Shown piece by piece: positions 6,237 to 63,716 of a DNA stretch of 64,000 bases (the first letter of the stretch is position 1; the number at the start of each line of letters is the position of its first letter). A program made the position numbers and the translations under genes. The stretch lies in sequence record PZ338878.1; one strand, given 5' to 3'. The notes under the pieces are model-generated. The model saw nothing but the letters and a program-made list of their open reading frames with translations, searched no databases and was not told where the DNA came from. This stretch comes from a phage.

Positions 6237-6257
6237 TATATTTTCCTTATTGGTTTA

Positions 6258-6987: not shown

Positions 6988-6988
6988 A

Positions 6989-7702: not shown

Positions 7703-7703
7703 T

Positions 7704-8454: not shown

Positions 8455-8464
8455 AATCTACTCC

Positions 8465-8629
8465 TTAACGTACAAAGTTAACCTCTGCTTCTTTCAGCTT
8501 TGACACTTCTACATAACCACCATGATCATCTTTAATCCATTCTTTTCCTTTACGGATGATAACAGGGTATGTAGAGTGAGTAAGTTTAGGTACAGATCTT
8601 TTTGTTTTAGTGATAGAAATGTTTTGCAT
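8465..8629 (-). CDS. small hypothetical protein (54 aa)
   Basis: hand-translated MQNISITKTKRSVPKL...; AGGAG RBS; below ORF-track size cutoff. Confidence 0.35.
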   Translation of the reverse strand: MQNISITKTKRSVPKLTHSTYPVIIRKGKEWIKDDHGGYVEVSKLKEAEVNFVR

Positions 8630-8689
8630 AGTAGTCTCCTTAGTAAATTTTACATAGAGTCTAGATTATTTAGTAGATAGAGTCAATAA

Positions 8690-8956
8690 CTAATTACTGT
8701 TAGATCTGTATTCTGTCTTCCATTCACAATGGTAAACTTCAACAGGTTCTAACTTCCAGTGTTCAGGAACTAATTCAGGGCAATATCTACAAAAGAGAAA
8801 TAGATAGATAATTAAGACAGGTATTAAATAGTAAAATGGTATACGATCATAACCATACTTACGAGATAACATGTAGACATATAGATAGGGTATAACAATT
8901 AATCCTATAACTATAAGTAAGAAGAGAAGTATAAACCTTAGTGTAGTAACATCCAT
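8690..8956 (-). CDS. small membrane protein (88 aa)
   Basis: two hydrophobic segments; AGGAGA RBS. Confidence 0.5.
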   Translation of the reverse strand: MDVTTLRFILLFLLIVIGLIVIPYLYVYMLSRKYGYDRIPFYYLIPVLIIYLFLFCRYCPELVPEHWKLEPVEVYHCEWKTEYRSNSN

Positions 8957-8983
8957 AGTATTCTCCTATACAGTAATATACTC

Positions 8984-9014
8984 TGTTCCTGCCCCTCCAT
9001 GAGTGGCAGGAACA
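8984..9014 (-). promoter_or_regulatory. intergenic hairpin immediately 5' of RBS of gene 8690..8956
   Basis: TGTTCCTGCC / GGCAGGAACA inverted repeat, 11-nt loop. Confidence 0.35.
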
Positions 9015-9033
9015 ATATCTATAGAGAATACTA

Positions 9034-9088
9034 ACTCGCTTCGCTCGTCACCTTTCAGGTTTAGGGTAGCATGTTTTTCTGAAAAAGT
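9034..9088 (+). repeat. conserved intergenic element, copy A (second copy at 36198..36250)
   Basis: CTCGCTTCGCTCG...TAGGGTAGCATGTTTTT...GAAAAAGT shared with copy B. Confidence 0.5.
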
Positions 9089-9120
9089 CAATACTCTCCA
9101 CAAAACTTTACAAAATACTT

Positions 9121-9393
9121 TTACATAGGTACAACAGAGTCTGTTTTGAAGTCGTACATATGATTTACACCTGTGATTTTTGACATAGAGATTGCACGTT
9201 TAACACCTGCAATTACCTGGTCTGTCTTCTTAATCTCTTCACGGAACTTACGTACAGTTAGAGAGAAGAAACGATGATCCATCCATTGACGGTTAACACG
9301 ATCACGTTTGAAGTGACGGAAATCTTCAATCTGTCTGTTACGCAAACGGCGCAGTACATATAATAATTCATAGTAAGGGTGTTTATTTTTCAT
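9121..9393 (-). CDS. hypothetical protein (90 aa)
   Basis: ORF. Confidence 0.5.
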   Translation of the reverse strand: MKNKHPYYELLYVLRRLRNRQIEDFRHFKRDRVNRQWMDHRFFSLTVRKFREEIKKTDQVIAGVKRAISMSKITGVNHMYDFKTDSVVPM

Positions 9394-9396
9394 AAT

Positions 9397-9825
9397 TTAT
9401 TCTCCAAATCGAAAATCGTCAATATCATCAAACCATACACAATGGCGAGTCCTTTCTTTTTCTGTTGCAGACATTGTTTCAACAGCTTTAGGACTAAGCA
9501 CAACAGGAATGTAACGAACAGGTCGTTCATAATAGTAGCCATACTTTTCTGTATTAGCTGCCTCAAAGACTTTACGGCGTTCTTCAAGATCTTCTATGGT
9601 GAATCCTACCATATAACCATCATGTTTGCTACCCCATCCTTCCTCACTTTCAACAATCGGGATATAAAAGCCGTTACGCGTCCCTGACGCTGGTTTTTCT
9701 TGAGCCTGAAGGCAAGCCTCCCATCCTGCTTTAAAGACGTTATAGAGCGATTTACGCACGTTATGAGTGCCGCTTTCGCTTGCTGGATAGATTTCATTAA
9801 ACTTGTCTTGGATTTGTTGTGTCAT
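9397..9825 (-). CDS. hypothetical protein (142 aa)
   Basis: ORF. Confidence 0.5.
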   Translation of the reverse strand: MTQQIQDKFNEIYPASESGTHNVRKSLYNVFKAGWEACLQAQEKPASGTRNGFYIPIVESEEGWGSKHDGYMVGFTIEDLEERRKVFEAANTEKYGYYYERPVRYIPVVLSPKAVETMSATEKERTRHCVWFDDIDDFRFGE

Positions 9826-9968
9826 ACCCGCCCCTTAGTGATTATTTGACCAGCTAAACAAATAGCTTGTAGTACAATAAAGAAGTAGCCTAATTTTACA
9901 CTACCCAATACCCAGAATGCAATGTTTGCAAACAAACAAAAAGCAATATTAAGTCTAAAGAATAACAT

Positions 9969-40575: not shown

Positions 40576-41388
40576 TTATTTAGTCAAATGATCTTCTATC
40601 ATTTTTATGAAAGCAGGATTGCTAAAAGCATCTGCGGCTTTTTCTCGATAAACAAAGACTCCTCTATCTTCGTAAAGAAGAGTTTCTTCGTAATTAATTC
40701 CTGGGTTAACAACAATCATTTTTGTACCCATATTAAGTGCAGGGAATAATTCCCAATTAAAATTGATAACTTGGTTTGAACATCCTACTACAACAACCAA
40801 ATCTTGCATGGTCAAAGTATCAAACAAGTGAGCCATATCTGCATACAAAGGTGCAGCCTCACCAAAAAATACAACATTAGGCTTCACCCAGTTATAATCA
40901 TCTATGTTTATGCTGTTGTAACCAATATCTACCAGTGTTTTGTAATCTCCAGGATGCATACGGTAAACTACTTCAGGAAGATATCCGTGCACGTGAATAA
41001 CCGAATCTCTGTCTACACCTGCTCGCTCTAGTAGATCATCAACGTTTGTTGTCAAGTTTACTACTTGGTTAGGATATTCCTTAAACCACTTTGCTATTTG
41101 AATATGTGCAGCATTAGGTTGTACATCTTTAAGCTCAACACGTCTTTTGTTATAAAATTCGTGTGTTTTGGCATACAAATCCATACCGTTTTCGTCTACA
41201 CCACCAACCACTGGAAGATCTGGAGATGTTCTCACACGATAACCTGCTTGGAAAGCTCCAATATTGCAGACCTCTTCTAAATCATATTCTTCCCATAAAG
41301 CACGACCACTATCTGTGTCTGTTCGGAATGTTCGAATCCCACTGTCTGCACTTAAACCAGCTCCACTAACAAAAATTACTCTTCGCAT
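40576..41388 (-). CDS. Sir2-family (sirtuin/CobB-like) protein
   Basis: GAGLSADSGIRTFR, TTNVDDL, HG, VVFFGE, VVGCS motifs. Confidence 0.8.
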   Translation of the reverse strand: MRRVIFVSGAGLSADSGIRTFRTDTDSGRALWEEYDLEEVCNIGAFQAGYRVRTSPDLPVVGGVDENGMDLYAKTHEFYNKRRVELKDVQPNAAHIQIAKWFKEYPNQVVNLTTNVDDLLERAGVDRDSVIHVHGYLPEVVYRMHPGDYKTLVDIGYNSINIDDYNWVKPNVVFFGEAAPLYADMAHLFDTLTMQDLVVVVGCSNQVINFNWELFPALNMGTKMIVVNPGINYEETLLYEDRGVFVYREKAADAFSNPAFIKMIEDHLTK

Positions 41389-42719: not shown

Positions 42720-43709
42720 TCATTCCTCCATACACTTAAGAATATGTGCAATGACAGGTATAGTCCAACCATTACCTAACATCTTATATGCTTGTGTGTT
42801 ACTACTCACTTTAAAGTAATCATCTGGAACACCTTGTAAGCGGCAACACTCTTTAACCGTTAACTTTCTATAATGCACACCTTCACTCAATTTTTCAAAG
42901 GCATCCAGATATCTTCCAGGTGGAATGTAAGCTAATAGTACGTCTTTCGGCACAGTCGTGAGGCAACGAGTTTTTTCACTGTCCTGAACTTCCAAGCAAT
43001 GTACCAAACGATCAGTTTTAGATGTACTACGTTTGCCATTTTCATTAATTCTACGCCCATATATTGCTGCTGGATAAAAAACCAGTTGTCTGCGACTCTT
43101 TTCAAAATACTGTTCTATATTACCACCTTTGGCATAATTTGCATCTATGCAATACGCCTTGTCCCTGTCTACAATACTATCATCTTCAATAATATCTTGC
43201 AACACTTCATTGGTAATATCCCAAGGCTTTATTTCCCAATTGCACCAGTATAAACGTTGTCTATTCTGTGCCGTGAAATCTGCGGAGTTAATGAATACGG
43301 GATCAACACCTAAGTAACTTGTGATCACGTTTTCCCACTCTACCTTCATCTTAACGTTTTCAAGCATGAACTTAACATTAGGGTTAAACTTTTTAATATG
43401 TTCAAGAATTTCAACATATTCAAAGAACAGTTTAGATCGCGGATCTTGAAAGTTCAAACCCTTACCAGAAGAAGAGAAGCCTTGGCACGGGCTACCACCT
43501 AACAAAAGATCAATTTCTCCCCACGGGATATCCCATTCTCTCCATTTTGTAACATCCCCTAATTGAATAATGTCTGGAAAATTGGCTTGGCTTTCAGCTA
43601 TGGCAAATTTGTCCAATTCTGAGGCATAATATTTATCTACTTCAATACCTGCACTTTTTAGTGCAAGCATTCCTCCTGACATACCATCAAAAAGACTTAA
43701 AACTTTCAT
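42720..43709 (-). CDS. DNA (cytosine-5)-methyltransferase
   Basis: FDGMSGG (motif I), GSPCQGFS (IV), ENV (VI), QNRQR (VIII). Confidence 0.85.
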   Translation of the reverse strand: MKVLSLFDGMSGGMLALKSAGIEVDKYYASELDKFAIAESQANFPDIIQLGDVTKWREWDIPWGEIDLLLGGSPCQGFSSSGKGLNFQDPRSKLFFEYVEILEHIKKFNPNVKFMLENVKMKVEWENVITSYLGVDPVFINSADFTAQNRQRLYWCNWEIKPWDITNEVLQDIIEDDSIVDRDKAYCIDANYAKGGNIEQYFEKSRRQLVFYPAAIYGRRINENGKRSTSKTDRLVHCLEVQDSEKTRCLTTVPKDVLLAYIPPGRYLDAFEKLSEGVHYRKLTVKECCRLQGVPDDYFKVSSNTQAYKMLGNGWTIPVIAHILKCMEE

Positions 43710-48673: not shown

Positions 48674-48924
48674 TATTCATCCCAATCGTTGTTTCGAGCA
48701 CTTTCAAGAACCTTGACAACTTCTGCGTACTCTACAGCTAAACCAGCACACACTTCAGCTTGTTTTGCAATTGCTTGCTTAAAGAACATAGCGATTGCAA
48801 CACTCTGTGTTGTGTGAATGTTATCTGCTTTAGTTGATACATGAAGATCAAAATCTTCTTCATCAAAGGTGAGTTCCATAGTAACAATAAATTTCTCGGT
48901 CATAAAAATGCTCCTCTTAAACAA
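48673..48924 (-). CDS. hypothetical protein (83 aa)
   Basis: ORF. Confidence 0.45.
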   Translation of the reverse strand: MFKRSIFMTEKFIVTMELTFDEEDFDLHVSTKADNIHTTQSVAIAMFFKQAIAKQAEVCAGLAVEYAEVVKVLESARNNDWDE

Positions 48925-49426
48925 AATAGAAAGGTTGAGTTAAACCCAGCCTGTTTTTTGGGTCGTAGACGTACCAAGCATATGCTGTCTTGTCAGTACC
49001 ACCTGCAACAAAAGATGGTCGTTCAGAAAGAACAATCAAATTTGTTGGCGGGTTCTGTTTATGGAATTCCCTTCGTTTAATAGACTCTAGGAACCCAAGA
49101 CGCAACAAGTATATGCAAACGTCTGCTTCTTTTAAGCTCTTTTGCAAGAACTCAAGTGCAAGTCTGAATGGTGGATTTGTGATTATAATATCCGGCTTAG
49201 TATGCCATTCGTGGTTAAAATAATCCTTCCCTTCTTCTAACTCACAATATTCTGATCCTTCTGGAAAATGTTGATAAATTGCAGCAGCAGCACCTTTACA
49301 CGGTTCTGCAAAAATAAAACCTTCTTCTTTAAGGTTATTAAAATCTATTACACTAAATAATGCATTTATACATTTTTGTGGAGTAGGATAGTAATCAGTT
49401 GGTGGACGATCATACTTATTTGCCAC
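48917..49426 (-). CDS. phage Dam-type DNA N6-adenine methyltransferase
   Basis: DYYPTP near N-terminus and IITNPPF catalytic motif. Confidence 0.7.
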   Translation of the reverse strand: MANKYDRPPTDYYPTPQKCINALFSVIDFNNLKEEGFIFAEPCKGAAAAIYQHFPEGSEYCELEEGKDYFNHEWHTKPDIIITNPPFRLALEFLQKSLKEADVCIYLLRLGFLESIKRREFHKQNPPTNLIVLSERPSFVAGGTDKTAYAWYVYDPKNRLGLTQPFYFV

Positions 49427-49884: not shown

Positions 49885-50538
49885 TTAATTATCAGAGGAC
49901 ACTTTATCAAGTTTTTCAGAGACTGTCAATACTTTTTCTTGTGATTCTTTCATTTCTGCTAAAATACTTTCAGCTTCATCACTATCAGGATCACCAGTCA
50001 ACAGCATACTAATTAGTTGCTCCTTGCTGAAGTTCAGAATATCTTCCGCTGTTAGTTCCAGTTGTTCTTCGATCTCTTCAACAAAAGTTTCACCGCCTGA
50101 AAAAGCATCTCGTAGTTTTGCAACTTCCATCGCTTCTTCTGGGGTTGCCCCAGCGTCTAAAGCTGCTAAAGCAAAATCTGCCCCACTACCAACAGCATAG
50201 TAATCTTCAGTTAAAGGATATGCTCGCGTTGGATTATTACCCTCGTGCATATAAATTTTACCGTCTGGGTGAACAACCAATGCCACAAACTCTTCATCTT
50301 CTTTATCAGGATCTGACTGGATCACCAAACCTGGGATTGTCTCTTGTGCTGCCTGGCACTGTAAGTTTTGTTCGAACCAAGAAAAGAAAGTCAGGATAGA
50401 AGACAGACGTCCTGCACCACCAACAAGGTAATCCCCAATTTTACGCACTTTCTTGAAATTTAAAGTGTCTACTCGATTACCTACTGTTACTTTACCGTCA
50501 GATAGAATTTTGTTATGTGTTGCAATAATTGTTGTCAT
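49885..50538 (-). CDS. HslV-like proteasome-type (Ntn hydrolase) peptidase with acidic C-terminal extension
   Basis: N-terminal MTTI, KKVRKIGD, GGAGRLSS, AVGSGADFALAA parallel E. coli HslV. Confidence 0.7.
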   Translation of the reverse strand: MTTIIATHNKILSDGKVTVGNRVDTLNFKKVRKIGDYLVGGAGRLSSILTFFSWFEQNLQCQAAQETIPGLVIQSDPDKEDEEFVALVVHPDGKIYMHEGNNPTRAYPLTEDYYAVGSGADFALAALDAGATPEEAMEVAKLRDAFSGGETFVEEIEEQLELTAEDILNFSKEQLISMLLTGDPDSDEAESILAEMKESQEKVLTVSEKLDKVSSDN

Positions 50539-51065: not shown

Positions 51066-51818
51066 TTAATATACTTCCGTGATGAACTGAGACAAACGGG
51101 AACGTTGGTTATCAGCAGTTGTCATTTCAACATAACCAATAAAATCTACAATAGCTTCCCTTTCTCCTTCTTCGTTAATAGGAACAACACGATCTAACAA
51201 ATCACCTAACCCGTTAGCTCTTCGTTTAATTGCATATGTTTGATTAACATCACCCATAATGACAATTCGTGTATTAAGACCTGCTCGCTCAAGGAGAAGT
51301 TTTACTGTGTTTGGTGACATAAGTTGAACTTCATCAATAAGAATAATGCTGTTATCCCACGTAGCACCTAGTGCATAGTTTGGAATATTAAGTTCAATTT
51401 TGCCACTTGCAATATCGTTTTCCAATTTATTTGCAGTCATAAACTGTTGGAAAATTCTTTTAGTTGACTCGTAGTGTGCTGCTAGTTTATCAGTCTTATC
51501 TCCAGATAAGAAACCGATTTGGTCATCACCTACTTCTGTCGGGTTTTTAAGGAAAATCAACTTTCTGAAGTCACCAGCTTTAAGCATTTGCAATGCTTTC
51601 CATAGTGCTGTTGTCGTTTTTCCTGTTCCTGCTGGGGCATTAACAATGGTTAAATCATTCCAAACCATGCTTCTTACAATAGCTTCTTGATTCCCAATAG
51701 GGGTAAATTCATCAAGACGGTAATCATCATTTCCTACTGCTTTAGCCGCATAACGACTGGCACGTTTGTCATCATTGGCTGCTGATTGACGACGAGCCTT
51801 TGCGGTTTTATTTCCCAT
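51066..51818 (-). CDS. phoH: PhoH-like ATPase
   Basis: Walker A NAPAGTGKTT and PhoH-like layout. Confidence 0.8.
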   Translation of the reverse strand: MGNKTAKARRQSAANDDKRASRYAAKAVGNDDYRLDEFTPIGNQEAIVRSMVWNDLTIVNAPAGTGKTTTALWKALQMLKAGDFRKLIFLKNPTEVGDDQIGFLSGDKTDKLAAHYESTKRIFQQFMTANKLENDIASGKIELNIPNYALGATWDNSIILIDEVQLMSPNTVKLLLERAGLNTRIVIMGDVNQTYAIKRRANGLGDLLDRVVPINEEGEREAIVDFIGYVEMTTADNQRSRLSQFITEVY

Positions 51819-51856: not shown

Positions 51857-52357
51857 TTAGTTATAAGCGTCTAATGTTCCAGTTTTAAGCACCTGAATTA
51901 CACGCTCTGCGCGATTAGGCGTTTGGCGATACCATTTACTTTTACGTAAATTTATAGAGGCTTGAGTATAATATGAATTACTCACTAAAGTCAAGCTATT
52001 TTTGAAAGATTCTGCACCTTTCAATCCCATTTGAAATACCATATTAATAATAGCCATTTTACGATTAGGACTTACTTTATCGTAAATAGGAGATAATATG
52101 GTGCTTGAATGGATTTGTTGTATCGCTTTCTTTACGTCACTCTCAAAGATTCTTCTAGCTTCCGCTTCAGTAATAACCCCATTGGTTTTTCTACCTACTA
52201 AGTTATCAAGAATGCGTATAGCTTCTGCTTTATCTTTGAGTTTTGTCAGAAGGTGTCCAATACCAACTGTCCAATACCCTTCGGTATCAGTATATACAGT
52301 TAGCTTTAGTCCTTCATCAAAACGTAACATATCAAACACATCAACTACTTTAGCCAT
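51857..52357 (-). CDS. T4-type lysozyme (endolysin, GH24)
   Basis: MLRFDEGLKLTVYTDTEGYWTVGIGHLL and WYRQTPNRAERV closely parallel T4 lysozyme. Confidence 0.95.
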   Translation of the reverse strand: MAKVVDVFDMLRFDEGLKLTVYTDTEGYWTVGIGHLLTKLKDKAEAIRILDNLVGRKTNGVITEAEARRIFESDVKKAIQQIHSSTILSPIYDKVSPNRKMAIINMVFQMGLKGAESFKNSLTLVSNSYYTQASINLRKSKWYRQTPNRAERVIQVLKTGTLDAYN

Positions 52358-52517: not shown

Positions 52518-52784
52518 TTACTCCGCAATCTGAGCCATGAATTCACGTAGTTCAGAAAAACCTCCTACGTGGGTTAGATGTTCACCATCTTCCACAAAAA
52601 TTTGAGGAAAGGTACGTGGCAGAACACCTGTTTTCTCTAAAACCAGATTCTGAATCTGATCTAAAGAATAGTCTTCATCTAAGGTAAGATATTTAAAATC
52701 CTGTTCACGCTGTTCCAGTAGAATCTTAGCGTTAGTGCAGAAAGGACAATTTGGTTTACCGTAGATAATAAAATTCATTTTCAC
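52518..52784 (-). CDS. glutaredoxin-like protein (RNR electron donor)
   Basis: CPFC active-site motif; 88 aa. Confidence 0.8.
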   Translation of the reverse strand: MKMNFIIYGKPNCPFCTNAKILLEQREQDFKYLTLDEDYSLDQIQNLVLEKTGVLPRTFPQIFVEDGEHLTHVGGFSELREFMAQIAE

Positions 52785-53611
52785 TCCTTGTTTAAAAGTA
52801 TAGTTAAAGTTCTTACAATACCGCTATCAACACTTCGCGGATTTAAAGTAGGATCTGTTTTTAAATAAGATGTTGCTGGTCTGACTGCTTTAGAATTATA
52901 GGTTGAAGCAGATACAGGATTAACTGTAACAGATAAATCTATAACAAGAAATATCTTACGTGCAAAATCATACCAAGAAATATAATCTGCACCTGCATAG
53001 TGTACAATTTTACTATTTACACCATCTTTTACAAGTTTAAAAATTGTTTCTGCAAGATCAGGTGCATAAGTAGGACATGATAAATGATCACATACTACAT
53101 TAAATTCTTTTTGACCACCGTTGTAGCGTTCCAACATAGTTTTCAAAAAGTTATGTCCAAATTCACTATAAACAGAAGCTGTTCTGATAATAAGTGCTGT
53201 AGGACAAACTGCTTGTACTAAAGTTTCACCTAATTGTTTACTGTAACCGTAGGTGTTCAAGGGGTTTGTTTTACTATCTTCTGTGCCAGCAACATGCCCA
53301 TCAAAAACATAGTCTGTTGAAATATGTACAAACTGTATCAGTAAATCATTACATGCTTTGGCAATGTTTGTTGCACCGTATGCATTAACATTTATACAGG
53401 TGTTAACATCTTCTTCAGCTTTATCTACTGCCGTGTAAGCTGCACAATTCACAACAACGTCAGGCACGTGCTGTACAAGACTATTCATAACATCTTTAAA
53501 GTTGGTAATGTCTATATCACTTGCTTCAATCAAAATAACATCTTCGGGCGCAACTTTTGCCAAAGACTGTCCTAATTGACCTTTTGAACCAAAGATTAAA
53601 AATTTTGTCAA
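52781..53611 (-). CDS. rmlD: dTDP-4-dehydrorhamnose reductase
   Basis: N-terminal Rossmann GSKGQLG; size and operon position. Confidence 0.75.
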   Translation of the reverse strand: MTKFLIFGSKGQLGQSLAKVAPEDVILIEASDIDITNFKDVMNSLVQHVPDVVVNCAAYTAVDKAEEDVNTCINVNAYGATNIAKACNDLLIQFVHISTDYVFDGHVAGTEDSKTNPLNTYGYSKQLGETLVQAVCPTALIIRTASVYSEFGHNFLKTMLERYNGGQKEFNVVCDHLSCPTYAPDLAETIFKLVKDGVNSKIVHYAGADYISWYDFARKIFLVIDLSVTVNPVSASTYNSKAVRPATSYLKTDPTLNPRSVDSGIVRTLTILLNKE

Positions 53612-54162
53612 AATATGATCTCCTTTAGTGTTTTGGCTTGCTGATCTTTTTGTGACAAGATAGGTTTAAAATTAATATCATTAAAGATTAAATCAAAACC
53701 CCAATCTATATTGATATCTGGATCATTCCACACAAGACTACACTCTGAAGTCGGATCGTAATATTCTGTACATTTATATTCAAAATCAGCAATGTCGCTA
53801 ATCACAACAAAGCCATGAGCGAAACCAGGAGGAATCCAAAATTGTGTTTTATTCTTTTCAGATAAAAGAACACCTACCCATTCTCCAAATGTCGGACTAC
53901 CAACCCTAATATCTACAGCAACATCATAAACTTCACCACGAACACAACGTACTAACTTCCCTTGTGGGTTTTTCTTTTGAAAATGAAGCCCACGTAGAAC
54001 TCCTCGAATAGAACGTGAGTGGTTATCCTGGACAAAGTTTTGTTTACCTATGTATTGATCATATAAAGCCTGATTAAAACTTTCTAAGAAAAAGCCACGT
54101 TCATCTCCGTAAACGTCAGGTTGAATGATCAACAAATCTTCGATTTTTGTTGCTTGAATCAT
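53608..54162 (-). CDS. rmlC: dTDP-4-dehydrorhamnose 3,5-epimerase
   Basis: DERGFF motif; cupin-size 184 aa. Confidence 0.8.
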   Translation of the reverse strand: MIQATKIEDLLIIQPDVYGDERGFFLESFNQALYDQYIGKQNFVQDNHSRSIRGVLRGLHFQKKNPQGKLVRCVRGEVYDVAVDIRVGSPTFGEWVGVLLSEKNKTQFWIPPGFAHGFVVISDIADFEYKCTEYYDPTSECSLVWNDPDINIDWGFDLIFNDINFKPILSQKDQQAKTLKEIIF

Positions 54163-54174
54163 TTAATTCCCCCT

Positions 54175-55044
54175 TTATTTTAATTTAAGTAAATACTTAC
54201 CGTAGTCTGTTTTACTTAAAACCTCTCCAGAACTTTTTACAGAGTCTAAAGTAATCCATTCATTTTTAAAAGCAATCTCTTCTAGGCATGCAACCTTCAT
54301 ACCTTGTTGCTTTTCTATTGCATGAACAAATTGAGATGCTTCCATAAGACTTTCATGTGTTCCTGTATCCAGCCAAGTGAAACCTCTTCCTAGTTTACAG
54401 ACACGTAAAGTCTTTTCTTTCCAGTACATCTCATTTATATCTGTAATCTCTAACTCCCCTCTAGCAGAAGGTTTAACGCTCTTAGCTTTCTGTATAACAG
54501 AATTATCGTAAAAGTACAAGCCTGTGATTGCGTAGTTGCTTTTTGGTGCTTTTGGTTTTTCTTCAATACTCACCACTGTACCTTCAGAATCAAACTCAAC
54601 AACACCAAATCTTTCAGGATCATTTACGTGATACCCAAAAATATTAGCTCCACCATTCTTTTCAATATATTCTTTAGTAGAATCTAAAATGCTACCAAAA
54701 CTCTGACCAAAGAATAAATTATCACCTAGCACAAGTGCTACAGAATCTTCGCCAATAAAGCTCTCACCAATAATAAACGCTTCTGCTAAACCTTTCGGGC
54801 TTTCTTGTATTGCATACTGTAGGGAAATACCAAAAGAAGAACCATCACCTAAAAGATTTACAAAATTAATTTGATCTTCTGGTGTTGTAATTATTAGTAT
54901 TTCCCTAATTCCAGAAAGCATTAGGACAGAGAGTGGATAATAAATCATAGGCTTATCGTAAATTGGTAATAGTTGTTTACTAACCCCTTTAGTAACTGGG
55001 TAAAGTCTTGTTCCACTACCACCTGCTAAGATAATACCTTTCAT
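54175..55044 (-). CDS. rmlA: glucose-1-phosphate thymidylyltransferase
   Basis: N-terminal [14 protein letters not shown]. Confidence 0.9.
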
Positions 55045-55052
55045 ACTCCTCC

Positions 55053-56042
55053 TTAAACTTTATTTTCCCACCACTCTTTGTTATCTACATACCAATCAAT
55101 GGTTGAATAAAGTTTTTCTTCAAATGTGCCTTTAGCTTTCCACCCTAATTCCTTTTCAATCTTATAAGGATTCACTTCATATCTTAGATCATGCCCAGGT
55201 CTATCTGTAACCATCTCAATTAGGCTACAAGCATCTGTTTCAGATGGATACACCGCATCCATATAATCACAAATCATATAGATTACATCAATATTAGTTC
55301 TAGGGTTTCTGCTCCCAATATTATATGTTTCTCCAGATTTGCCTTTAGTTACTACTAGGTGTAGTGCTTCTGCGTGATCGTCAACGTATAACCAATCTCT
55401 TACTTGAAGACCATTACCGTAAACAGGGATTGGTTTATGCATCAAGATATTTGTTATCGTTTTAGGTATTAGTTTTTCTGGATGATGATATGCTCCAAAA
55501 TTATTTGAACAATTTGTTATAACTGTCGGAATACCATAAGTACGATGCCACGCTCTTACCAAATGATCGCTTGCAGCTTTAGATGCAGCATATGGACTAC
55601 TTGGTTTATAAGGATTCTGTTCTGTAAACGGATAATCCCCTTCTTCCATATCACCATACACTTCATCTGTTGAAATATGATGAAACATTTTAAGATTTGA
55701 TTTATCTCCCATTAAACGAACAGCTTCTAGAAGATTAAATGTTCCAACAATATTTGAATTTATAAAAACACTCGGTGATGCTATTGAATTATCTACGTGA
55801 CTTTCTGCTGCAAGATGCATTATATAATCTGGATTAACATCTGCCACAATCTTAGCAGTTAACTGAGCATTTGTCAAGTCAACACGACAAAACTTTACAT
55901 TAGGTGTTTCTGATAAATTTCTAGGGTCTGAAGCGTAACCCCATTTATCTATAACGTAAATATCATTCTTAGTATTTTTAGCCAGGAAACGAACTACTGC
56001 ACTTCCAATAAAGCCTAAACCACCTGTTACTAAGTATTTCAT
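55053..56042 (-). CDS. rmlB: dTDP-glucose 4,6-dehydratase
   Basis: TGGLGFIGS and YAASKAASD (YxxxK). Confidence 0.9.
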
Positions 56043-56236
56043 TTAGTCTCCTTCCAATTATTCCCTTCAGTAAAAATAATACCTTCATAAAACAACCATC
56101 TGGAACCTTTTTCAACAGGAACAGGAATCTCTTCTTCAGTAAAGTTATAAACCTCTCTAGCATCTTCTAAAAGTGATGCAAATGTTTTTGGACTTACTGT
56201 TACGCGAGGAGCATTGATCAGTCGATCTAGCATCAT
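56039..56236 (-). CDS. hypothetical protein (66 aa)
   Basis: start at ATG 56236 with AGGAGG RBS. Confidence 0.45.
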   Translation of the reverse strand: MMLDRLINAPRVTVSPKTFASLLEDAREVYNFTEEEIPVPVEKGSRWLFYEGIIFTEGNNWKETK

Positions 56237-56249
56237 TCTACTATCCTCC

Positions 56250-56576
56250 TTACCAAACGTGTTGAGAAATAATAGTTTCCGTTTCAATGTTATATTTTTC
56301 AAGAAGTTGTGCGTAGGCTTCTTTTGCATTCTTATTTAGTTGCTCAAGATCTACAGCTATACTTCCTTCGCCACCTTCTAAATAAATGCCATATATGCAA
56401 TAAGATGCATCAGCGTCATAGAAAGGTGAGATACGGCTTAAATCAAGACCTTCTTGTAAGAACCAATTAAAATCTCCATCAAATTCTTCTTCAATTCTAG
56501 GATCTTCTCCTACAGCCTCTTCCCATTTATTAAAAGGTGCACCCTGTAACATACGCCATGCAATATCAACTCCCAC
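56250..56576 (-). CDS. hypothetical protein (108 aa)
   Basis: ORF. Confidence 0.5.
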   Translation of the reverse strand: MGVDIAWRMLQGAPFNKWEEAVGEDPRIEEEFDGDFNWFLQEGLDLSRISPFYDADASYCIYGIYLEGGEGSIAVDLEQLNKNAKEAYAQLLEKYNIETETIISQHVW

Positions 56577-56897: not shown

Positions 56898-57108
56898 CTT
56901 TTTCTCCTTTGATAATTTCAAACTTGGCTACACCATTAACTATAATATGACCGCAAGACATAACTCCTAGCCAATGATCACCATTCTTTTTTAAACGTTT
57001 GCCGTAAACATCACAGAAACCATTCTGTAATTCGGAAGCCTCATAAGAGGCTCCCTTTTCGAAAACGTCTTTGAAGTCAGAAATTAATCCAACACAAAGT
57101 AGTTTCAT
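56890..57108 (-). CDS. hypothetical protein (72 aa)
   Basis: TAATG coupling to nrdB. Confidence 0.45.
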   Translation of the reverse strand: MKLLCVGLISDFKDVFEKGASYEASELQNGFCDVYGKRLKKNGDHWLGVMSCGHIIVNGVAKFEIIKGEKDD

Positions 57109-58193
57109 TAGAAGTCTAACTCCTCGTCATCACTTACATCTTTATTTGCTGAATTCAGTTTGTAAGCTGTAATTTGGATCTCCTGTGCTGCTGCTTGAAT
57201 TTGATCTGGATTTAACCAAACATCCATCCAAGGCAGTGGACTTTTCTTCGGTGCACGGAATTTATGTTTCATTTTCAGTCTGCGATAGATAGGTGCAGCA
57301 TTGAAGTAAACCCAAAGTTTGAACAACTCTGCGTTACCACCAACGATAACCCTTCCTTCACTAAACAGATAGTCACACCAATCTTCCTCTTGTCCAACTA
57401 CCGTGTCAAGAATTTCTGTCAGAACGTCGATATTATCTTCGTATACTTTTCTCCAAACAGGATCTTTCAGCAGTGCATCAATAATAGCATAATCCATTTT
57501 AACGTGCAATAGTTCATCCAACATAATTTTTTGAATGAGTTTAGCTGCACCTACAAACAGTTGCTGCTCTGCTAAAGCAAATGTTGCAGCAAAAGAGGAT
57601 ATGAATTGAATGCCTTCCAGACCGATAAGTGCAATCATTCCTTTCAGGATCAGTAGACGAAGGTTATCATCCTTCTCAATCAGACCTAGAGCATATTTAT
57701 GTCCTGCCTCTGCCAGATCACTCATTATCTCTTCAACTATACCCATCCTCTGGAAGATTCTTTCGTTCTCCATAATCTGATCGATAACTTCATTTGGATT
57801 AGGGATACACTGACGAATAATTTCAGAATATGTCAAAGCGTGTAAAACTTCCATTTCCGATTGCTTCATCATCATTGCACATGCTTCGTTGTTGCTTAAA
57901 AATGGTGCAAACAAAGTGATAATTGATTTAGCAAGTGAATCATTTTCCCATTGGAAAGATAGGTTTTTGATCATAACATCATAGTTGCTTTTAGAACAAG
58001 CTACGAAATCTTTTCGTGTCTGATCTAAGTCTACCTCGTTTTCATCCCAATCTTGCTGTTTTTGTAGTTTGTACAGACGATGCATTTCTGGGTATGTTAC
58101 ATTAATAGAATCAAAAATACCTAACTGTTCTCCCAAAAATACAGGATAGAAACCTTCTTTGTAAGTGTCGTTGTATAAATTAATCGCTGCCAT
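57108..58193 (-). CDS. nrdB: ribonucleotide reductase class Ia beta subunit
   Basis: EDWCDYLF, NPLPWMDVWL and acidic C-terminal tail parallel E. coli NrdB. Confidence 0.85.
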   Translation of the reverse strand: MAAINLYNDTYKEGFYPVFLGEQLGIFDSINVTYPEMHRLYKLQKQQDWDENEVDLDQTRKDFVACSKSNYDVMIKNLSFQWENDSLAKSIITLFAPFLSNNEACAMMMKQSEMEVLHALTYSEIIRQCIPNPNEVIDQIMENERIFQRMGIVEEIMSDLAEAGHKYALGLIEKDDNLRLLILKGMIALIGLEGIQFISSFAATFALAEQQLFVGAAKLIQKIMLDELLHVKMDYAIIDALLKDPVWRKVYEDNIDVLTEILDTVVGQEEDWCDYLFSEGRVIVGGNAELFKLWVYFNAAPIYRRLKMKHKFRAPKKSPLPWMDVWLNPDQIQAAAQEIQITAYKLNSANKDVSDDEELDF

Positions 58194-58515
58194 TTAAATC
58201 CTCCACAATATCACACATTGCTTTTATTGTATCAATGTGTTTTCTCTCCATACCATTCTCTATGTAAGCCTTCTCTAATGCGTTCCATACACTCTTTGTG
58301 AGTAGTACAGTAACCTCTCCATCATATCTTGCCCTGGTTAAAGCATACCAGGTAGCTTCTGGATCATTGGAAGCCCATATTTCAACACTGGAAAATTGAA
58401 AACCTGCAATATAATGGCAACACCAATCGAATGTAAAATCTTTACTATCTACCAGTGTATAATTTCCCCAGCGTCTTTGTGGTGTTGCTCCAGGTAATAC
58501 AACTAATGTAGGCAT
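58180..58515 (-). CDS. hypothetical protein (about 111 aa)
   Basis: start at ATG 58515 after hairpin and AAGGAGG. Confidence 0.45.
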   Translation of the reverse strand: MPTLVVLPGATPQRRWGNYTLVDSKDFTFDWCCHYIAGFQFSSVEIWASNDPEATWYALTRARYDGEVTVLLTKSVWNALEKAYIENGMERKHIDTIKAMCDIVEDLNGSD

Positions 58516-58530
58516 ATTCCTCCTTAAGAA

Positions 58531-58548
58531 AGGGGGACAAAGCCCCCT
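58531..58548 (-). terminator. attenuator/terminator hairpin between nrdA and downstream gene
   Basis: GGGGG-ACAAAG-CCCCC. Confidence 0.5.
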
Positions 58549-58555
58549 AGTTTCA

Positions 58556-60817
58556 TTACATCTTACAAGCCTCACAACCGGATTCTTCATCCTCTTGAGC
58601 GAGTGAGGTTGCCGATTTTGTTCTGCTATTTAGATAGTACAAAGATTTACCACCAAGTTTTGCAAACTGAAGAATATATTGCATTTCTGATTTAATGGAT
58701 AAACGACCACCTTCCATCTTAGAATAGTCAATCCACTTATCACATGATGCACCTTGATCTAAGAATTTAGTCAATAATCCATATGCTTCAGCCATATCTT
58801 TATCTGGCGTATCCCAAGCCGATTGGTAAATATCTTTTAGTTTATCATAGTCTGGCACAATAAACAGGACATTACCTTTTTGGCTTTGTTTATAAACTAT
58901 AGTATCACGTACAGGATACACAGAGTTAGTCGTATTACTTACAAGACTACTGGACTCATTCGGAGCAATAGCTGCTAATACACTATTTCGGATACCGCCT
59001 TGTGCAATGATATCTTGTCGTAAACCTTCCCAATCCATTTTAAGTTTAAAATTGCCAATATCGTCTACAGCTTTAGCGTAGGTGTCAATAGGCAACCATC
59101 CTTCAGGCCATTTGGTTTTATGCATCCATTCTGCATTACCCTTCTCTTTTGCCAAACGAAGAGAAGCTCTTGCTAACCAGTAATAATGCCTTTCTGCTAA
59201 TTCGTGAATTAGTTTTTTGCCGTAAGGATCTGAATAAGTAACAAAATTACTTGCCAGATAATGTGCAAGGTTTGTAATACCTACACCGATAGACCTACGT
59301 GCTTTAGCAGTGATTTCGTTATGTTTAAACGGATACTGCATTGTTTCAATAACATTATCAATAGTTAGAACGGTATAGTATGCAACATCTTCATATTCTT
59401 CTGGTGTAACACGACCAGCTACAATAGAAGACAGGAAGCATAATGCCAATTCTTGATCTTCTGTATTCTCACCTGTGAAAAGATCAGTCATATTGTGAAA
59501 TGCTTTCGTAGGTAAGAAAATTTCTTGGCACAAGTTTGACTGATAAATAACATCCTTAAACGGAGTATGCTTATTAGCATTATCCGCAAAGAACATATAA
59601 ATACGTCCTGTCTCTGCTCTTTGTGTAATAATTTCTGCCAGAAGATCTCGTGCTTTTACAAACTTCTTCTTAATACGTTTGCGACTAACTTTTTCATATA
59701 CTTCTTCAAACTCTTCCTCGCTTTTATAAAGCGCCTCATAGAGTTCTGGTGCTTCGTCATAACTAACTAGCATCCAATCTTTACCTTTTGCTGCACGGCG
59801 CAGGAAAGCATTGTTTACTACGATAGAGTAATCAAGTTTATCTACTCGTTTTTCACTAACAGTAGTTGGGTTTTTCAAACGTACCAAATCTTCAAAATCA
59901 GGTTCTAGTATTGTAAACGTTACTGTTGCACTTCCACCACGACTTGCTTGTTTTGATGCTCCAACACTTGTCTCCATCCATTTCAGATATGGTAAAAGAC
60001 CACCGTGAACGATACGGTTGTTCTTAACACCTTGTCCTGTAGCACGGGTTTGGAGGTTAACACCAATACCTGCATTATTCAATGTATATTCATGCGCAAG
60101 ATAGTTAGCAATTGCTAAAGATTCTGCTGTATCATCTGCTCTAAACAGACAACAAGAAGCACTACCTTTAATCTTAGTACGCAAAGTTGTTAAATAAGGT
60201 GATGGTAAATTAATCTTAAGATCACTTACGTAGGTATATAGACGTTTAATGTCTTCTACTCTGCGATCTTTTGGTTGGATTTCCATTACCTTCATTGCTA
60301 CACCAATGAATAAAAACTGTGGTGATTCAAAAACAACATCATTGATCGCATCTTTGACAAGATACTTATCAACCATCTGGCGTAGTACGGAATAACCATA
60401 AGTTAGGTTTTTATCGTGATTGACAATTTTACCAATCTCAATAATTTCTTCTTCTGTATAATCCATTTTTCCCCAATAGCCTTTACTTACAGACATATTG
60501 TAGAAATCCAGGAGGGAGGGGATATTATGATATCCCCCATGAGCCTGTTTATAAATCATACCAAGAAGTAACCGACCTGCCATATCACTATATGCCTGAT
60601 CTTTCTTATCAATACATGCTGCTATCATAGCTTTATGTAAATCACGAGTAGGCACACCGTCGTAACAACGTTTAACAGCTTCAAGTTCAATTTCAGACCA
60701 ATTTAATTTACCAGCAGCAAACTCTGACCATTTACGAAGTTTTTCTGGATTAAATTCTTCTTTCTTGCCGTTTGTTTTTGTTACATAACGGATAGATTTG
60801 CTTAGATACTGAGTCAC
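58556..60817 (-). CDS. nrdA: ribonucleotide reductase class Ia alpha subunit
   Basis: 753 aa; active-site NLCQEI; C-terminal CEAC pair. Confidence 0.9.
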   Translation of the reverse strand: MTQYLSKSIRYVTKTNGKKEEFNPEKLRKWSEFAAGKLNWSEIELEAVKRCYDGVPTRDLHKAMIAACIDKKDQAYSDMAGRLLLGMIYKQAHGGYHNIPSLLDFYNMSVSKGYWGKMDYTEEEIIEIGKIVNHDKNLTYGYSVLRQMVDKYLVKDAINDVVFESPQFLFIGVAMKVMEIQPKDRRVEDIKRLYTYVSDLKINLPSPYLTTLRTKIKGSASCCLFRADDTAESLAIANYLAHEYTLNNAGIGVNLQTRATGQGVKNNRIVHGGLLPYLKWMETSVGASKQASRGGSATVTFTILEPDFEDLVRLKNPTTVSEKRVDKLDYSIVVNNAFLRRAAKGKDWMLVSYDEAPELYEALYKSEEEFEEVYEKVSRKRIKKKFVKARDLLAEIITQRAETGRIYMFFADNANKHTPFKDVIYQSNLCQEIFLPTKAFHNMTDLFTGENTEDQELALCFLSSIVAGRVTPEEYEDVAYYTVLTIDNVIETMQYPFKHNEITAKARRSIGVGITNLAHYLASNFVTYSDPYGKKLIHELAERHYYWLARASLRLAKEKGNAEWMHKTKWPEGWLPIDTYAKAVDDIGNFKLKMDWEGLRQDIIAQGGIRNSVLAAIAPNESSSLVSNTTNSVYPVRDTIVYKQSQKGNVLFIVPDYDKLKDIYQSAWDTPDKDMAEAYGLLTKFLDQGASCDKWIDYSKMEGGRLSIKSEMQYILQFAKLGGKSLYYLNSRTKSATSLAQEDEESGCEACKM

Positions 60818-61597: not shown

Positions 61598-62569
61598 TCA
61601 CCATTTTGTATGGTTCGTCAAAAGTTGACGATGTTGAATCCAACCACAGAAGTTTCCACTCCACAAACGATGTTTACGATCCATATGTGTAATACCTTCT
61701 TCCCAGGAGGAAGGGAACGGAGGAATATTAATACCACCTTTCTGTTGTTTTAATCCTGACAAATCCATTTCTTTCATTGGCGTTGCCTGGTGTTCAAACG
61801 GAGATGCATGTACCTTTTGTCCAGACAGCAAACGAGAATAGATATCCAATGCTTTATCTTTAGTATCATTCAACTTACGATAACTTACCTGAGCGCAACA
61901 AGAAGCTGAAATAGCTTTTGCTTCATCTTCTGTCAACACTTTCTCGTTGGAGAAGGTTTCACCCAAGAAATAACGGATCATACCAGTTTCTGGATCTCGA
62001 TCACGATTAACGTAAGGTGTATGCCATTCCCCTGGGAAAAGAAGATATGGTTCAGAAGATTCATACAGTTTTTTAATTTCTTTAGCAAGAGCCTCAATAG
62101 TAGGATCTGCATCAGCATCTACGCGCAACCACAAGAAGTTTTCTAGCTCTGTAGTGGTTACTACAGTCTTCATACGCTGAAATGGTTCTAGTAGGCGGTT
62201 TGCAACCTGTTTATGATAACCAGCAAGGGAAAACTCTTCTGCAAAACGTGCAGCACTTAGCGCAGCCAAGTCCCACCATTCTTTTGCAGTATAACCTGCA
62301 TCAATCAGGGCATCGTGATCTGTGCCTTTATCTTGCATACCTGGTTGGTTAGCACCAAAACGATAAGGACGTGCTGGAGATTGCCGTACCATTTCAATCA
62401 GGGTTTTAACAGGGATAGCTCGACTTGATGCGGCATTACGAGAAAACAAACGATGCGTCATCAATTCAGAGTGAATGATTCGAGGATATTCAAGTTCAAA
62501 GGTAACAATATCCTTACCTTCGGATGTTTGAGAGTGTGCAATAATTTTTGCTGAAATAGAATTTGTCAT
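61598..62569 (-). CDS. ThyX-like (flavin-dependent thymidylate synthase family) protein, atypical motif order
   Basis: THRLFSRNAASSR (RHR-x7-S-like), NFLWLRVDADA, HASPFEH motifs; 323 aa. Confidence 0.55.
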   Translation of the reverse strand: MTNSISAKIIAHSQTSEGKDIVTFELEYPRIIHSELMTHRLFSRNAASSRAIPVKTLIEMVRQSPARPYRFGANQPGMQDKGTDHDALIDAGYTAKEWWDLAALSAARFAEEFSLAGYHKQVANRLLEPFQRMKTVVTTTELENFLWLRVDADADPTIEALAKEIKKLYESSEPYLLFPGEWHTPYVNRDRDPETGMIRYFLGETFSNEKVLTEDEAKAISASCCAQVSYRKLNDTKDKALDIYSRLLSGQKVHASPFEHQATPMKEMDLSGLKQQKGGINIPPFPSSWEEGITHMDRKHRLWSGNFCGWIQHRQLLTNHTKW

Positions 62570-62578: not shown

Positions 62579-63169
62579 TTAAGGTAGTAAAATACTTTCA
62601 ATTTCTTCCCACTGATTATCTAAACCAGTGATAATTACATTAGGAAGTTTCTTTAACTCTTCCAAATATGGATCTTCGTAAATAGTGTTGAAATATATTT
62701 TCAACGTTTCATCTGGAAACAGGACAAGATTTTCAGCCCTATCGTCAATAGTTACATCGCAAGGTAATAAGTATTTTTCTTTTGTTGCGAAAAAGCCATT
62801 ACCAGATGTTCTACTAAAATCCACTTTATCTAAAGATCGTGTTACGTGTCTATATTTAGAACTAAGGTGTCCACCCTTAGTGTGGCTCGCTATAGATATA
62901 TTAGCTCCATTTGCAATTATACGATGAACAACATCTGTACTATTAGGTACTACTCCCATAGTATCATATAGATGTTGGTTATCCCAAAAAGAGTAAGGAT
63001 CTACACCAAATTGCTTTTTAAAATCAGGGAAATATTTCGTAATATCATAGTGCACAGTCTTATGTGTCTTATCAAATTTGATATTAGATCTACTTACCGC
63101 ATTTAACCAATTTAACCATTCTATATCCGCTGGAGCTATTACTAAATCCCAATCACATACTAGACGCAT
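62579..63169 (-). CDS. HAD-superfamily 5'-nucleotidase-like protein
   Basis: CDWDLV (DxD) and TIDDRAEN motifs; start at ATG 63169 with AGGAG. Confidence 0.5.
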   Translation of the reverse strand: MRLVCDWDLVIAPADIEWLNWLNAVSRSNIKFDKTHKTVHYDITKYFPDFKKQFGVDPYSFWDNQHLYDTMGVVPNSTDVVHRIIANGANISIASHTKGGHLSSKYRHVTRSLDKVDFSRTSGNGFFATKEKYLLPCDVTIDDRAENLVLFPDETLKIYFNTIYEDPYLEELKKLPNVIITGLDNQWEEIESILLP

Positions 63170-63716
63170 TATTTCTCCTGTTATAACATTTTCTACACAT
63201 TGTTTCGTAAATGTCTTCTCCTCCAATAACAATCTGTTCTTTAGAGTCGATAAGTCTAGCATTGAAAATAGCTTTTCTTCCACATTTACAAATGCTTTTC
63301 AATTCTGTAATTGAATCTGCTATGGCTAATAACCGTTCAGAACCTTCAAACAATTCTGTAGCAAAATCTGTTTTAAGTCCATAGCAGAATACAGGAATAT
63401 CGTAATTGTCTACCACATCTCCAAGAATGTCAACCATATCTTTAGTTAGGAATTGTGATTCATCCACAAATACTGCATCTACTGGATTCTCTTTAAGTTG
63501 TGTATAAATTTCCAGCATATCTTCTTTTGTTTTAACTGGTTTTGCTTCCTCTTTAATACCTATCCTAGAAGCAATAGCACTACCAGATCTGGTATCTAAA
63601 GCTGAAGTTAAAAGAAGAACTTTCATATTTCTTTCTTTATAGTTCCAAGCTGTTTGTAGAAGATGTGTGCTTTTACCACTGTTCATCGGACTATATCGGA
63701 AATAAAGTTTAGCCAT
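63153..63716 (-). CDS. tdk: thymidine kinase
   Basis: P-loop SPMNSGKST; overall parallel to E. coli Tdk. Confidence 0.9.
   Translation of the reverse strand: MAKLYFRYSPMNSGKSTHLLQTAWNYKERNMKVLLLTSALDTRSGSAIASRIGIKEEAKPVKTKEDMLEIYTQLKENPVDAVFVDESQFLTKDMVDILGDVVDNYDIPVFCYGLKTDFATELFEGSERLLAIADSITELKSICKCGRKAIFNARLIDSKEQIVIGGEDIYETMCRKCYNRRNNASSM

Follow-up and report, generated by a model that had tools for sequence, protein, structure and literature searches.

Phages of the subfamily Stephanstirmvirinae are the closest described carriers of a phage-borne rml gene cluster, which takes its name from the bacterial pathway for dTDP-L-rhamnose. Olsen et al. (2020; PMC7552041) termed the cluster "peculiar" and proposed the glycosylation of hydroxymethylated nucleotides, as in T4. 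Maffei et al. (2021; PMC8594841) then described the phi92-like phages Bas60-62 as "exceptionally susceptible" to restriction-modification "despite ... a putative dTDP glycosylation machinery", and a 2024 paper (PMC10844046) mentioned the same restriction sensitivity together with "rhamnose modification in Stephanstirmvirinae phages". The END-nuclease preprint, the second BASEL paper and the BME3 paper contain no mention of glycosylation or DNA modification in these phages. The genes have thus been noted since 2020 without a demonstrated function, while later publications treat a "rhamnose modification" of the genome as though it were established. The present analysis concerns the rml cluster at positions 52781-56042 (minus strand) of a 64,000-nucleotide stretch of phage DNA (sequence record PZ338878.1), referred to below as the window.

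The window corresponds to positions 65,834-130,426 of phage PaulScherrer (Bas60). Its rml cluster is 99.6% identical to that of Escherichia phage pEC-M2929-1AR.1 and occurs at 95-99.6% nucleotide identity in 56 GenBank phage records of the genus Justusliebigvirus (phi92-like), in nearly all of which the four genes are annotated as rml. No material difference separates it from the cluster of the published phages phi92, PaulScherrer, alia, phAPEC8 and ESCO5, and the window represents another isolate of the genus. Since the cluster has been annotated and discussed since 2020, its recognition here is a correct rediscovery and not a new feature. What is new is the definition of an rmlC-rmlD core with a series of gene losses around it, the identification and structural typing of a glycosyltransferase cluster, and the link of that cluster to a dehydratase gene; the analysis thereby moves weight off the DNA-modification idea repeated in the literature.

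Two further groups of rhamnose systems provide a frame of comparison. The rmlBDAC (rfb) and rffG/rffH genes of the Enterobacteriaceae encode the same enzyme families with the same catalytic motifs, and the phage RmlB, RmlA and RmlC align best with Salmonella and Escherichia coli structures (1g1a, 1bxk, 1iim and 1dzr). In contrast, the phage RmlD is closer to Firmicute than to enterobacterial structures, the phage gene order is B-A-C-D as opposed to B-D-A-C in the E. coli rfb operon, nucleotide identity reaches only ∼67% at most, and the phage locus (34.7% GC, versus 37.1% for the window) has no adjacent O-antigen glycosyltransferase, flippase or polymerase. Mimivirus and the chloroviruses make rhamnose for the glycosylation of their own particles, thus combining a virus-encoded 6-deoxyhexose pathway with viral glycosyltransferases. 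These giant viruses use a UDP-linked two-enzyme route, however, and not the bacterial four-enzyme route via dTDP (deoxythymidine diphosphate) sugars.

The four genes are contiguous, and each was assigned by the curated equivalog cut-off of the respective NCBIfam family (lengths in amino acids, aa):

55053-56042, minus strand, rmlB, 4,6-dehydratase, 329 aa; TIGR01181, 441.7 bits (cut-off 365.1)
54175-55044, minus strand, rmlA, glucose-1-phosphate thymidylyltransferase, 289 aa; TIGR01207, 470.6 bits (cut-off 360.65)
53608-54162, minus strand, rmlC, dTDP-4-dehydrorhamnose 3,5-epimerase, 184 aa; TIGR01221, 260.9 bits (cut-off 155.75)
52781-53611, minus strand, rmlD, dTDP-4-dehydrorhamnose reductase, 276 aa, TTG start; TIGR01214, 254.4 bits (cut-off 224.05)

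Pfam gave the same identities for all four. In RmlB, the motifs GGLGFIGS (residue 7), STDEVYG (124) and YAASK (151) were found, the latter two in alignment with the Salmonella enterica enzyme 1g1a (392.9 bits); the Thr-Asp-Glu and Tyr-x-x-x-Lys motifs of a short-chain dehydrogenase/reductase 4,6-dehydratase are therefore retained, although several loops are shortened or missing (329 versus 361 aa in the bacterial RmlB). RmlA carries GGSGTRL (residue 8), LGDN (106), EEKP (161) and WLDTGT (224), all aligned to S. enterica RmlA (1iim; 418 bits), and thus the G-rich loop and the catalytic Asp and Lys of a thymidylyltransferase. RmlC has RGLHFQ (residue 57), GKLVRC (68) and FEYK (127) aligned to 1dzr (219.7 bits), with the catalytic His, Lys and Tyr of a cupin-type 3,5-epimerase. 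RmlD contains GSKGQLG (residue 8), STDYVFDG (98) and YGYSK (121), including the Thr and the YxxxK motif, and its nearest solved structures are those of Clostridium (1vl0) and Bacillus anthracis (3sc6), at ∼155 bits. A preliminary description of this DNA, made from the letters alone, had recognized four contiguous minus-strand genes for RmlB, RmlA, RmlC and RmlD by their motifs, with the same coordinates, and had placed them between glutaredoxin, lysozyme and PhoH on one side and nrdAB, a ThyX-like gene and tdk on the other. The profile hidden Markov models and the structure-based alignments bear out all four motif matches, and Pfam agrees with the named flanks.

The least secure of these assignments is that of RmlD, which scores 30 bits over its cut-off, leaves its last ∼25 residues unaligned to solved RmlD structures and shares no more than 46% identity with any cellular homologue found. 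The C4 stereochemistry of the product (L-rhamno or L-talo) is not readable from the sequence of an RmlD-type reductase. In view of the score and of the low identity to cellular enzymes, the product could be the C4 epimer dTDP-6-deoxy-L-talose. With this proviso, the predicted gene products very probably make a dTDP-6-deoxy-L-hexose.

The arrangement of the cluster is compact. The genes are separated by 8 and 12 nucleotides or overlap by 4, such that the TTG start of rmlD overlaps the stop codon of rmlC, and both rmlB and rmlD overlap their outer neighbours by 4 nucleotides. Shine-Dalgarno sequences precede rmlA, rmlC and rmlD; that of rmlA is strong (AAGGAGGAG), and that of rmlD, upstream of the TTG start, reads AAGGAG. 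Scans for promoters and terminators gave counts equal to those in shuffled sequence and were not used. The ratio of non-synonymous to synonymous substitution rates (dN/dS), calculated against two other isolates of the genus from small substitution counts, was 0.03-0.27 over the rml genes (∼0.03 for rmlB and 0.14-0.27 for rmlA), which indicates that they are under purifying selection.

The four-gene set described as a complete pathway in the preliminary description is present in full in the window, but completeness does not extend to the relatives. The order nrdB...rml...grx, where grx is glutaredoxin, was kept in all relatives examined, and within this locus the window and ESCO5 have B-A-C-D, while ESCO37 (with an rmlC and rmlD that match the ESCO5 genes at 99-100% identity), the Klebsiella phage phi1_175008 and one metagenomic relative have C-D only. 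In the relatives that lack rmlBA, a homologue of the 108-aa open reading frame (ORF) upstream of the cluster directly adjoins rmlC. In the GenBank record of phi1_175008, an unannotated gap of 578 bp contains an intact rmlC, 76% identical to that of the window (5402-6004 of the retrieved locus). Another metagenomic relative has an RmlD-like reductase alone (50% identical; 6340-7167) between nrdB and glutaredoxin, and rmlC was not found on its contig, which is only 12 kb long; on its own, such an RmlD would need RmlC from the host to turn the host intermediate into rhamnose. Finally, in Klebsiella phage KP13-16 glutaredoxin directly follows nrdB, and tblastn revealed no rml gene in the 85 kb examined. 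Across phage records, tblastn detected RmlD in 157 (107 of Escherichia and 8 of Klebsiella) and RmlA in 139 (88 of Escherichia; Klebsiella was not among the genera listed). RmlD is consequently the most widely kept rml gene of the subfamily, rmlC is kept in relatives without rmlBA, and only rmlC-rmlD, not the complete pathway, is widely conserved.

This pattern parallels the gene content of the host. Genes of the rffG/rffH type were matched in all 5426 complete E. coli genomes, while about half of an evenly spaced sample of the hit rows had no rfbBDAC match (a rough estimate, from blastn at ∼65% identity). The rffG and rffH genes of the enterobacterial common antigen cluster make dTDP-4-keto-6-deoxy-glucose. 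As they are present in every E. coli genome, whereas the rfb-type match is absent in about half, the steps that the phage must bring would be those of RmlC and RmlD; the phage RmlB and RmlA would merely add flux and could be lost. The natural variants lacking rmlBA, rmlC or all rml genes, together with the rmlCD core and the four-gene glycosyltransferase cluster described below, provide experimental handles.

Within the window no glycosyltransferase was detected. A search elsewhere in the genome, by means of the near-identical PaulScherrer, revealed four adjacent glycosyltransferase-like genes ∼15 kb before the start of the window, beside the primase/helicase and DNA polymerase genes:

PaulScherrer cluster, two GT-B paralogues, 314 and 337 aa; one with 26.8 bits to Pfam Glyco_trans_1_2, both with >485 bits to PHROG 7162
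PaulScherrer cluster, GT-A protein, 228 aa; invariant FIFDDD motif (DxD)
PaulScherrer cluster, 187-aa protein; glycosyltransferase by PHROGs

The AlphaFold model of the GT-A protein (pLDDT 88.8, modelled from a 78%-identical relative) adopts the GT-A fold. Its best solved match was the viral glycosyltransferase STIV A197, the Listeria rhamnosyltransferase RmlT was also among the matches, and a megavirus glycosyltransferase was among its closest viral structural neighbours. The GT-B model (pLDDT 94.9) resembles the GT4 enzymes BshA, MshA and PglA, and the protein O-glycosyltransferases GtfC/Gtf3, SdgB and GtfA/B are also among its structural neighbours; the T4 alpha- and beta-glucosyltransferases (AGT and BGT) were not among the top 50 structural matches. 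None of the cluster proteins has a transmembrane segment. Phage-encoded glycosyltransferases of predicted cytoplasmic location, which characterize the Che8 type of virion glycosylation, would thus be available, although their genes lie outside the window. The cluster has the same distribution as RmlD, namely 107 Escherichia and 9-10 Klebsiella phages. Its surroundings in PaulScherrer (51.5-59 kb) include a SleB-type cell-wall hydrolase and tellurite-resistance-like TerD and vWA-TerF-like genes, with one protein each matching TelA, TerC and CapR further along, and relatives annotate macrodomain, phosphoribosyltransferase and HAD genes in the same region.

A connection between these glycosyltransferases and deoxyhexose synthesis is apparent in more distant phages. 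In a divergent relative of 135.6 kb, a 356-aa NDP-hexose 4,6-dehydratase-like gene (TIGR01181, 171 bits, under the equivalog cut-off) is located within the cluster, between a gene designated 0051-like and the GT-A gene. In Streptomyces phage KimJongPhill, the same dehydratase family adjoins a GT-B homologue, and a block of dehydratase, methyltransferase and glycosyltransferase genes immediately precedes the terminase, portal and head genes (1199-3758 of the retrieved locus); this block looks like a virion-glycosylation cassette. Arthrobacter phage Atuin likewise carries the same dehydratase family near a GT-B homologue. The glycosyltransferase family is therefore tied to 6-deoxyhexose synthesis in three independent contexts.

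The explanation that we favour, with a probability of about 0.5 for the whole of it, is that the rml pathway feeds the phage glycosyltransferases, which act on a cytoplasmic acceptor, most likely a phage protein. In this scheme RmlA, RmlB, RmlC and RmlD would convert glucose-1-phosphate and dTTP to dTDP-L-rhamnose during infection, or to dTDP-6-deoxy-L-talose if RmlD has the opposite C4 stereochemistry. RmlC and RmlD would be the indispensable phage contribution, as the host RffH and RffG would supply dTDP-4-keto-6-deoxy-glucose and many hosts would lack the last two steps. The activated sugar would then serve as donor for the soluble phage glycosyltransferases (two GT4-like GT-B enzymes, the GT2-like GT-A enzyme with its DxD motif, and the fourth, PHROG-annotated protein), and these would build a deoxyhexose-containing glycan on the acceptor, for which a virion protein would be the leading candidate. 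Of the separate parts, the transfer of the rml product to the phage glycosyltransferases has slightly better than even odds, whereas a phage protein as acceptor is a tentative proposal. The latter fits the solubility of the enzymes, the protein O-glycosyltransferases among their structural neighbours, the presence of several glycosyltransferases and the location of the KimJongPhill block beside head genes.

A precedent is provided by mycobacteriophages, which use glycosyltransferases of their own to attach glycans to capsid and tail-tube proteins (PMC11256854, PMC12363180). The virion glycosylation of Che8, Corndog and Myrna (Freeman et al. 2023, as summarized in the same two papers) likewise involves phage-encoded soluble cytoplasmic enzymes. 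The 477-aa glycosyltransferases of other mycobacteriophages contain an N-terminal domain that is distantly homologous to the GT-A protein (26-27% identity, E ∼1e-12). Unlike the rml-bearing phages, the mycobacteriophages are without a full sugar-nucleotide pathway; conversely, no glycosylated protein has been demonstrated for the Stephanstirmvirinae, and no glycoproteomic data were found for them.

A number of observations weigh against this explanation. The co-occurrence of the glycosyltransferase cluster with RmlD is weak evidence, confounded by shared ancestry, since all of the phages concerned belong to one clade, and the rml genes are located ∼70 kb from the cluster. KP13-16 keeps the cluster without an rml homologue in the 85 kb, so that the glycosyltransferases are not strictly dependent on dTDP-rhamnose made by the phage. 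The usual donors of GT4 enzymes are UDP- or GDP-linked alpha-sugars, which leaves the donor specificity unsettled, and the marginal score of RmlD over its cut-off makes the exact sugar predicted from the sequence uncertain. Homology of the cluster proteins to Che8 gp108-110 was rejected, as all BLASTP matches had E ≥ 0.24 and were not significant; the mycobacteriophage matches belong to the different 477-aa glycosyltransferase (TChen gp98 / Sbash gp87). A 2026 cryo-electron microscopy study of phi92, with atomic models of capsid and tail at 3-3.9 Å, mentions no glycan. The literature search, moreover, returned no publication that demonstrates the acceptor of the sugar or an experimental link between pathway and acceptor.

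Glutaredoxin, lysozyme and PhoH are located downstream of rml, and NrdB, NrdA, the ThyX-type enzyme and thymidine kinase upstream:

51066-51818, PhoH (Pfam)
51857-52357, lysozyme (Pfam)
52518-52784, minus strand, glutaredoxin (Pfam Glutaredoxin, 47.3 bits); overlaps the end of rmlD by 4 nucleotides
56039-56576, minus strand, two small ORFs of unassigned function (PHROG 27883 and PHROG 15453); the proximal ORF overlaps the rmlB start by 4 nucleotides
57108-60817, minus strand, class Ia ribonucleotide reductase locus (nrdB, a small ORF, nrdA), upstream of rml on the same strand
57108-58193, minus strand, NrdB (Pfam Ribonuc_red_sm, 117.2 bits)
58556-60817, minus strand, NrdA (Pfam Ribonuc_red_lgC, 332.3 bits)
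61598-62569, minus strand, ThyX-like (Pfam)
63153-63716, thymidine kinase (Pfam)

Judged from their arrangement, glutaredoxin and rmlD belong to the same transcription unit. The ThyX-type protein (323 aa) is atypical in that Pfam Thy1 matches it with 36.5 bits over residues 22-170 only, and it reads THRLFSRNAASSR at the usual position of the RHR...S motif of ThyX; its score against the phage family PHROG 85 is 365 bits. Further along the window, 42720-43709 (minus strand) encodes a genuine C5-cytosine DNA methyltransferase (Pfam DNA_methylase, 148.7 bits). Relatives annotate two N6-adenine methyltransferases, one of which corresponds approximately to 48917-49426 of the window, and the phages are nonetheless reported to be restriction-sensitive.

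The preliminary description held that the sugar is used by the phage itself, in a pathway directly coupled to dNTP synthesis, and offered three candidate uses: a hypermodified DNA base, virion proteins or host surface glycans. Use by the phage has gained support from the four glycosyltransferases of near-identical relatives and from the 4,6-dehydratase-like gene inside the cluster of the divergent relative, whereas the proposed coupling comes down to shared gene order. Transfer of rhamnose to a hydroxymethylated or otherwise modified base, in the manner of T4 glucose and possibly only in certain contexts such as the sites of a Dcm-like methyltransferase, is the use assumed in the literature (PMC7552041, PMC10844046). 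The locus resembles T-even glucosylation and the hypermodification by TET and TET-associated glycosyltransferase (TAGT) in several respects: a virulent phage carries rml within its nucleotide-metabolism module and its glycosyltransferases next to primase/helicase and DNA polymerase, the C5-cytosine methyltransferase is genuine, TAGT is the only Pfam match of the GT-A protein (23.3 bits, E 6.7e-5), and PHROGs add a weak match to beta-glucosyl-HMC-alpha-glucosyltransferase (24.1 bits; HMC, hydroxymethylcytosine). The TAGT match, however, is under the gathering score of 27.5 and spans ∼60 residues around the DxD motif, to which the HMC-glucosyltransferase match is also confined; such matches are generic to the GT-A fold, and the relatives of the GT-A protein match GT2 equally well. 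On these grounds, membership of the protein in the TAGT family was rejected. In contrast to the T-even and TET systems, no ThyA-type hydroxymethylase, dCTPase, TET/JBP, 2-oxoglutarate (2OG) oxygenase or kinase of the 5-hydroxymethyluracil (5-hmU) type was found by Pfam in ∼60 (40 + 20) non-structural proteins of the window and PaulScherrer, and the thymidylate synthase is of the ThyX type, which leaves no recognizable hydroxymethyl-pyrimidine route among those proteins, although several large ones have no Pfam match and a divergent oxygenase could be among them. The structural neighbours of the GT-B model are GT4 enzymes, with T4 AGT and BGT absent from the 50 best, four glycosyltransferases exceed the need of the known DNA sugar modifications, and the susceptibility of Bas60-62 to restriction-modification (PMC8594841) argues against a global modification. 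A DNA base is consequently the weakest of the three candidate uses and, as an explanation of the cluster, quite unlikely. The narrower form, in which an unrecognized oxygenase or the atypical ThyX-like enzyme would give rise to a rhamnosyl (or 6-deoxytalosyl) base restricted to certain sequences, for example the sites of the C5-cytosine methyltransferase, is improbable as well. Any use on DNA would amount to a new base modification; a sequence-restricted one could evade the restriction-modification panels tested so far, and both the type of DNA sugar modification and its biosynthetic route would be new.

Remodelling of the host envelope is likewise unlikely, though it accords with several features of the phages. 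The dTDP-rhamnose, with or without the phage glycosyltransferases, would alter the core of the lipopolysaccharide (LPS), the O-antigen, the enterobacterial common antigen or another surface glycan, and could thereby block superinfection or the sticking of progeny to debris; diversion of dTDP-4-keto-6-deoxyglucose from dTDP-Fuc4NAc would also lower the synthesis of the common antigen. These phages recognize surface glycans, namely the LPS core (PMC8594841) and the N4 glycan receptor (PMC11990801), and E. coli K-12 can include rhamnose in LPS core glycoforms, as cited in PMC12548472. GT4 and GT2 enzymes are typical of polysaccharide assembly, with PglA, TarM, TarP, WrtF and the Listeria RmlT among the structural neighbours, and PHROGs class the glycosyltransferases under "moron, auxiliary metabolic gene and host takeover". 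Against this, no flippase, polymerase, ligase or initiating transferase was found in the phage, the glycosyltransferases have no membrane-spanning segment, the infection cycle of a virulent phage is short for a change of the surface, and no superinfection-exclusion phenotype has been reported in the literature. A stand-alone metabolic set, which would sustain the dTDP-sugar supply of the host without a phage-specific acceptor, appears very doubtful. In a variant of this idea, dTDP-rhamnose, which is a known feedback inhibitor of enzymes of the RmlA type, would accumulate and throttle the host's use of dTTP and glucose-1-phosphate, and the proximity to the dNTP genes would then be a sign that the pathway controls the thymidine-nucleotide pool. 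The location of the rml locus between nrdAB/ThyX/tdk and glutaredoxin, kept across the subfamily, the relative with an RmlD-like reductase alone between nrdB and grx, and the glycosyltransferase cluster without rml in KP13-16 are all compatible with a metabolic role, and RmlA and RmlB are listed as auxiliary metabolic genes in virome work (PMC6969025). However, the phage RmlA consumes dTTP, contrary to any sparing of it; rmlBA has been lost repeatedly while rmlCD was kept, which accords better with a requirement for the end product than with pool regulation; and the dehydratase-like gene in the relative's glycosyltransferase cluster points to use of the sugar.

The preferred reading, a sugar donor for phage glycosyltransferases, would have practical implications, as many collections for therapy and biocontrol include phages of the phi92-like and phAPEC8-like groups. 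A rhamnose-containing glycan on the virion proteins of these widely used therapeutic coliphages is possible, but less likely than not. If it is present, it could influence how stable therapy phages are, how they are cleared and how antibodies recognize them, as has been shown for mycobacteriophages, and it would be, to our knowledge, the first such case in phages of Gram-negative bacteria.

The history of the cluster appears to be long. Recent capture from the E. coli host was rejected on account of the different gene order and of a nucleotide identity of ≤ ∼67%; a partial match at this level exists in each of the 5426 complete E. coli genomes, but none covers 80% of the cluster. The phage RmlD belongs to a clade of its own, with ∼55 protein clusters that are 50-70% identical and lie for the most part on contigs of 140-157 kb; outside this clade, identity falls to ≤46% in bacteria, for instance Bacteroidota. 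Justusliebigvirus and Phapecoctavirus carry rml at the same position, while the Rml proteins are 54-71% identical, as opposed to 84-87% for NrdA and NrdB, which fits old vertical inheritance with fast divergence. A contig scan seeded by exact peptides of RmlB recovered only relatives at 42-50% identity (Firmicutes, Patescibacteria and archaea); this was attributed to the seeding, since solved enterobacterial RmlB structures score higher, and no origin was deduced from it.

In the unrelated Sphingomonas jumbo phage PAU, rmlB-rmlC-rmlA are located two genes downstream of a short ThyA-family protein (Thymidylat_synt, 44 bits; 4783-9864 of the retrieved locus) and are surrounded by large proteins without a Pfam match. 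A sugar-modified pyrimidine is more plausible in PAU than in the phage studied here.

Several other genes of the window and its relatives are worth recording. The 937-aa ORF at 2460-5273 (minus strand) is located where PaulScherrer annotates an intein-containing UvrD/Rep helicase, and the PaulScherrer DNA polymerase, outside the window, likewise bears an intein. A Sir2-family protein (40576-41388, minus strand; from the annotation of relatives) and an HslV/proteasome-like protein (49885-50538, minus strand; Pfam Proteasome, 24.4 bits) are encoded in the window, and genes for nicotinamide phosphoribosyltransferase and phosphoribosyl pyrophosphate (PRPP) synthetase also occur in relatives; together these suggest an NAD-related host takeover or counter-defence. 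Finally, records labelled as Campylobacter phages A145, A150, C3 and B15, Serratia phage KKP_3264, Acinetobacter phage vB_AbaM_ABPW7 and Pseudomonas phage PsgM04F carry genes that fall at the identity levels of the coliphage records of Justusliebigvirus or Phapecoctavirus, such that their host labels may be unreliable or their host range very broad.

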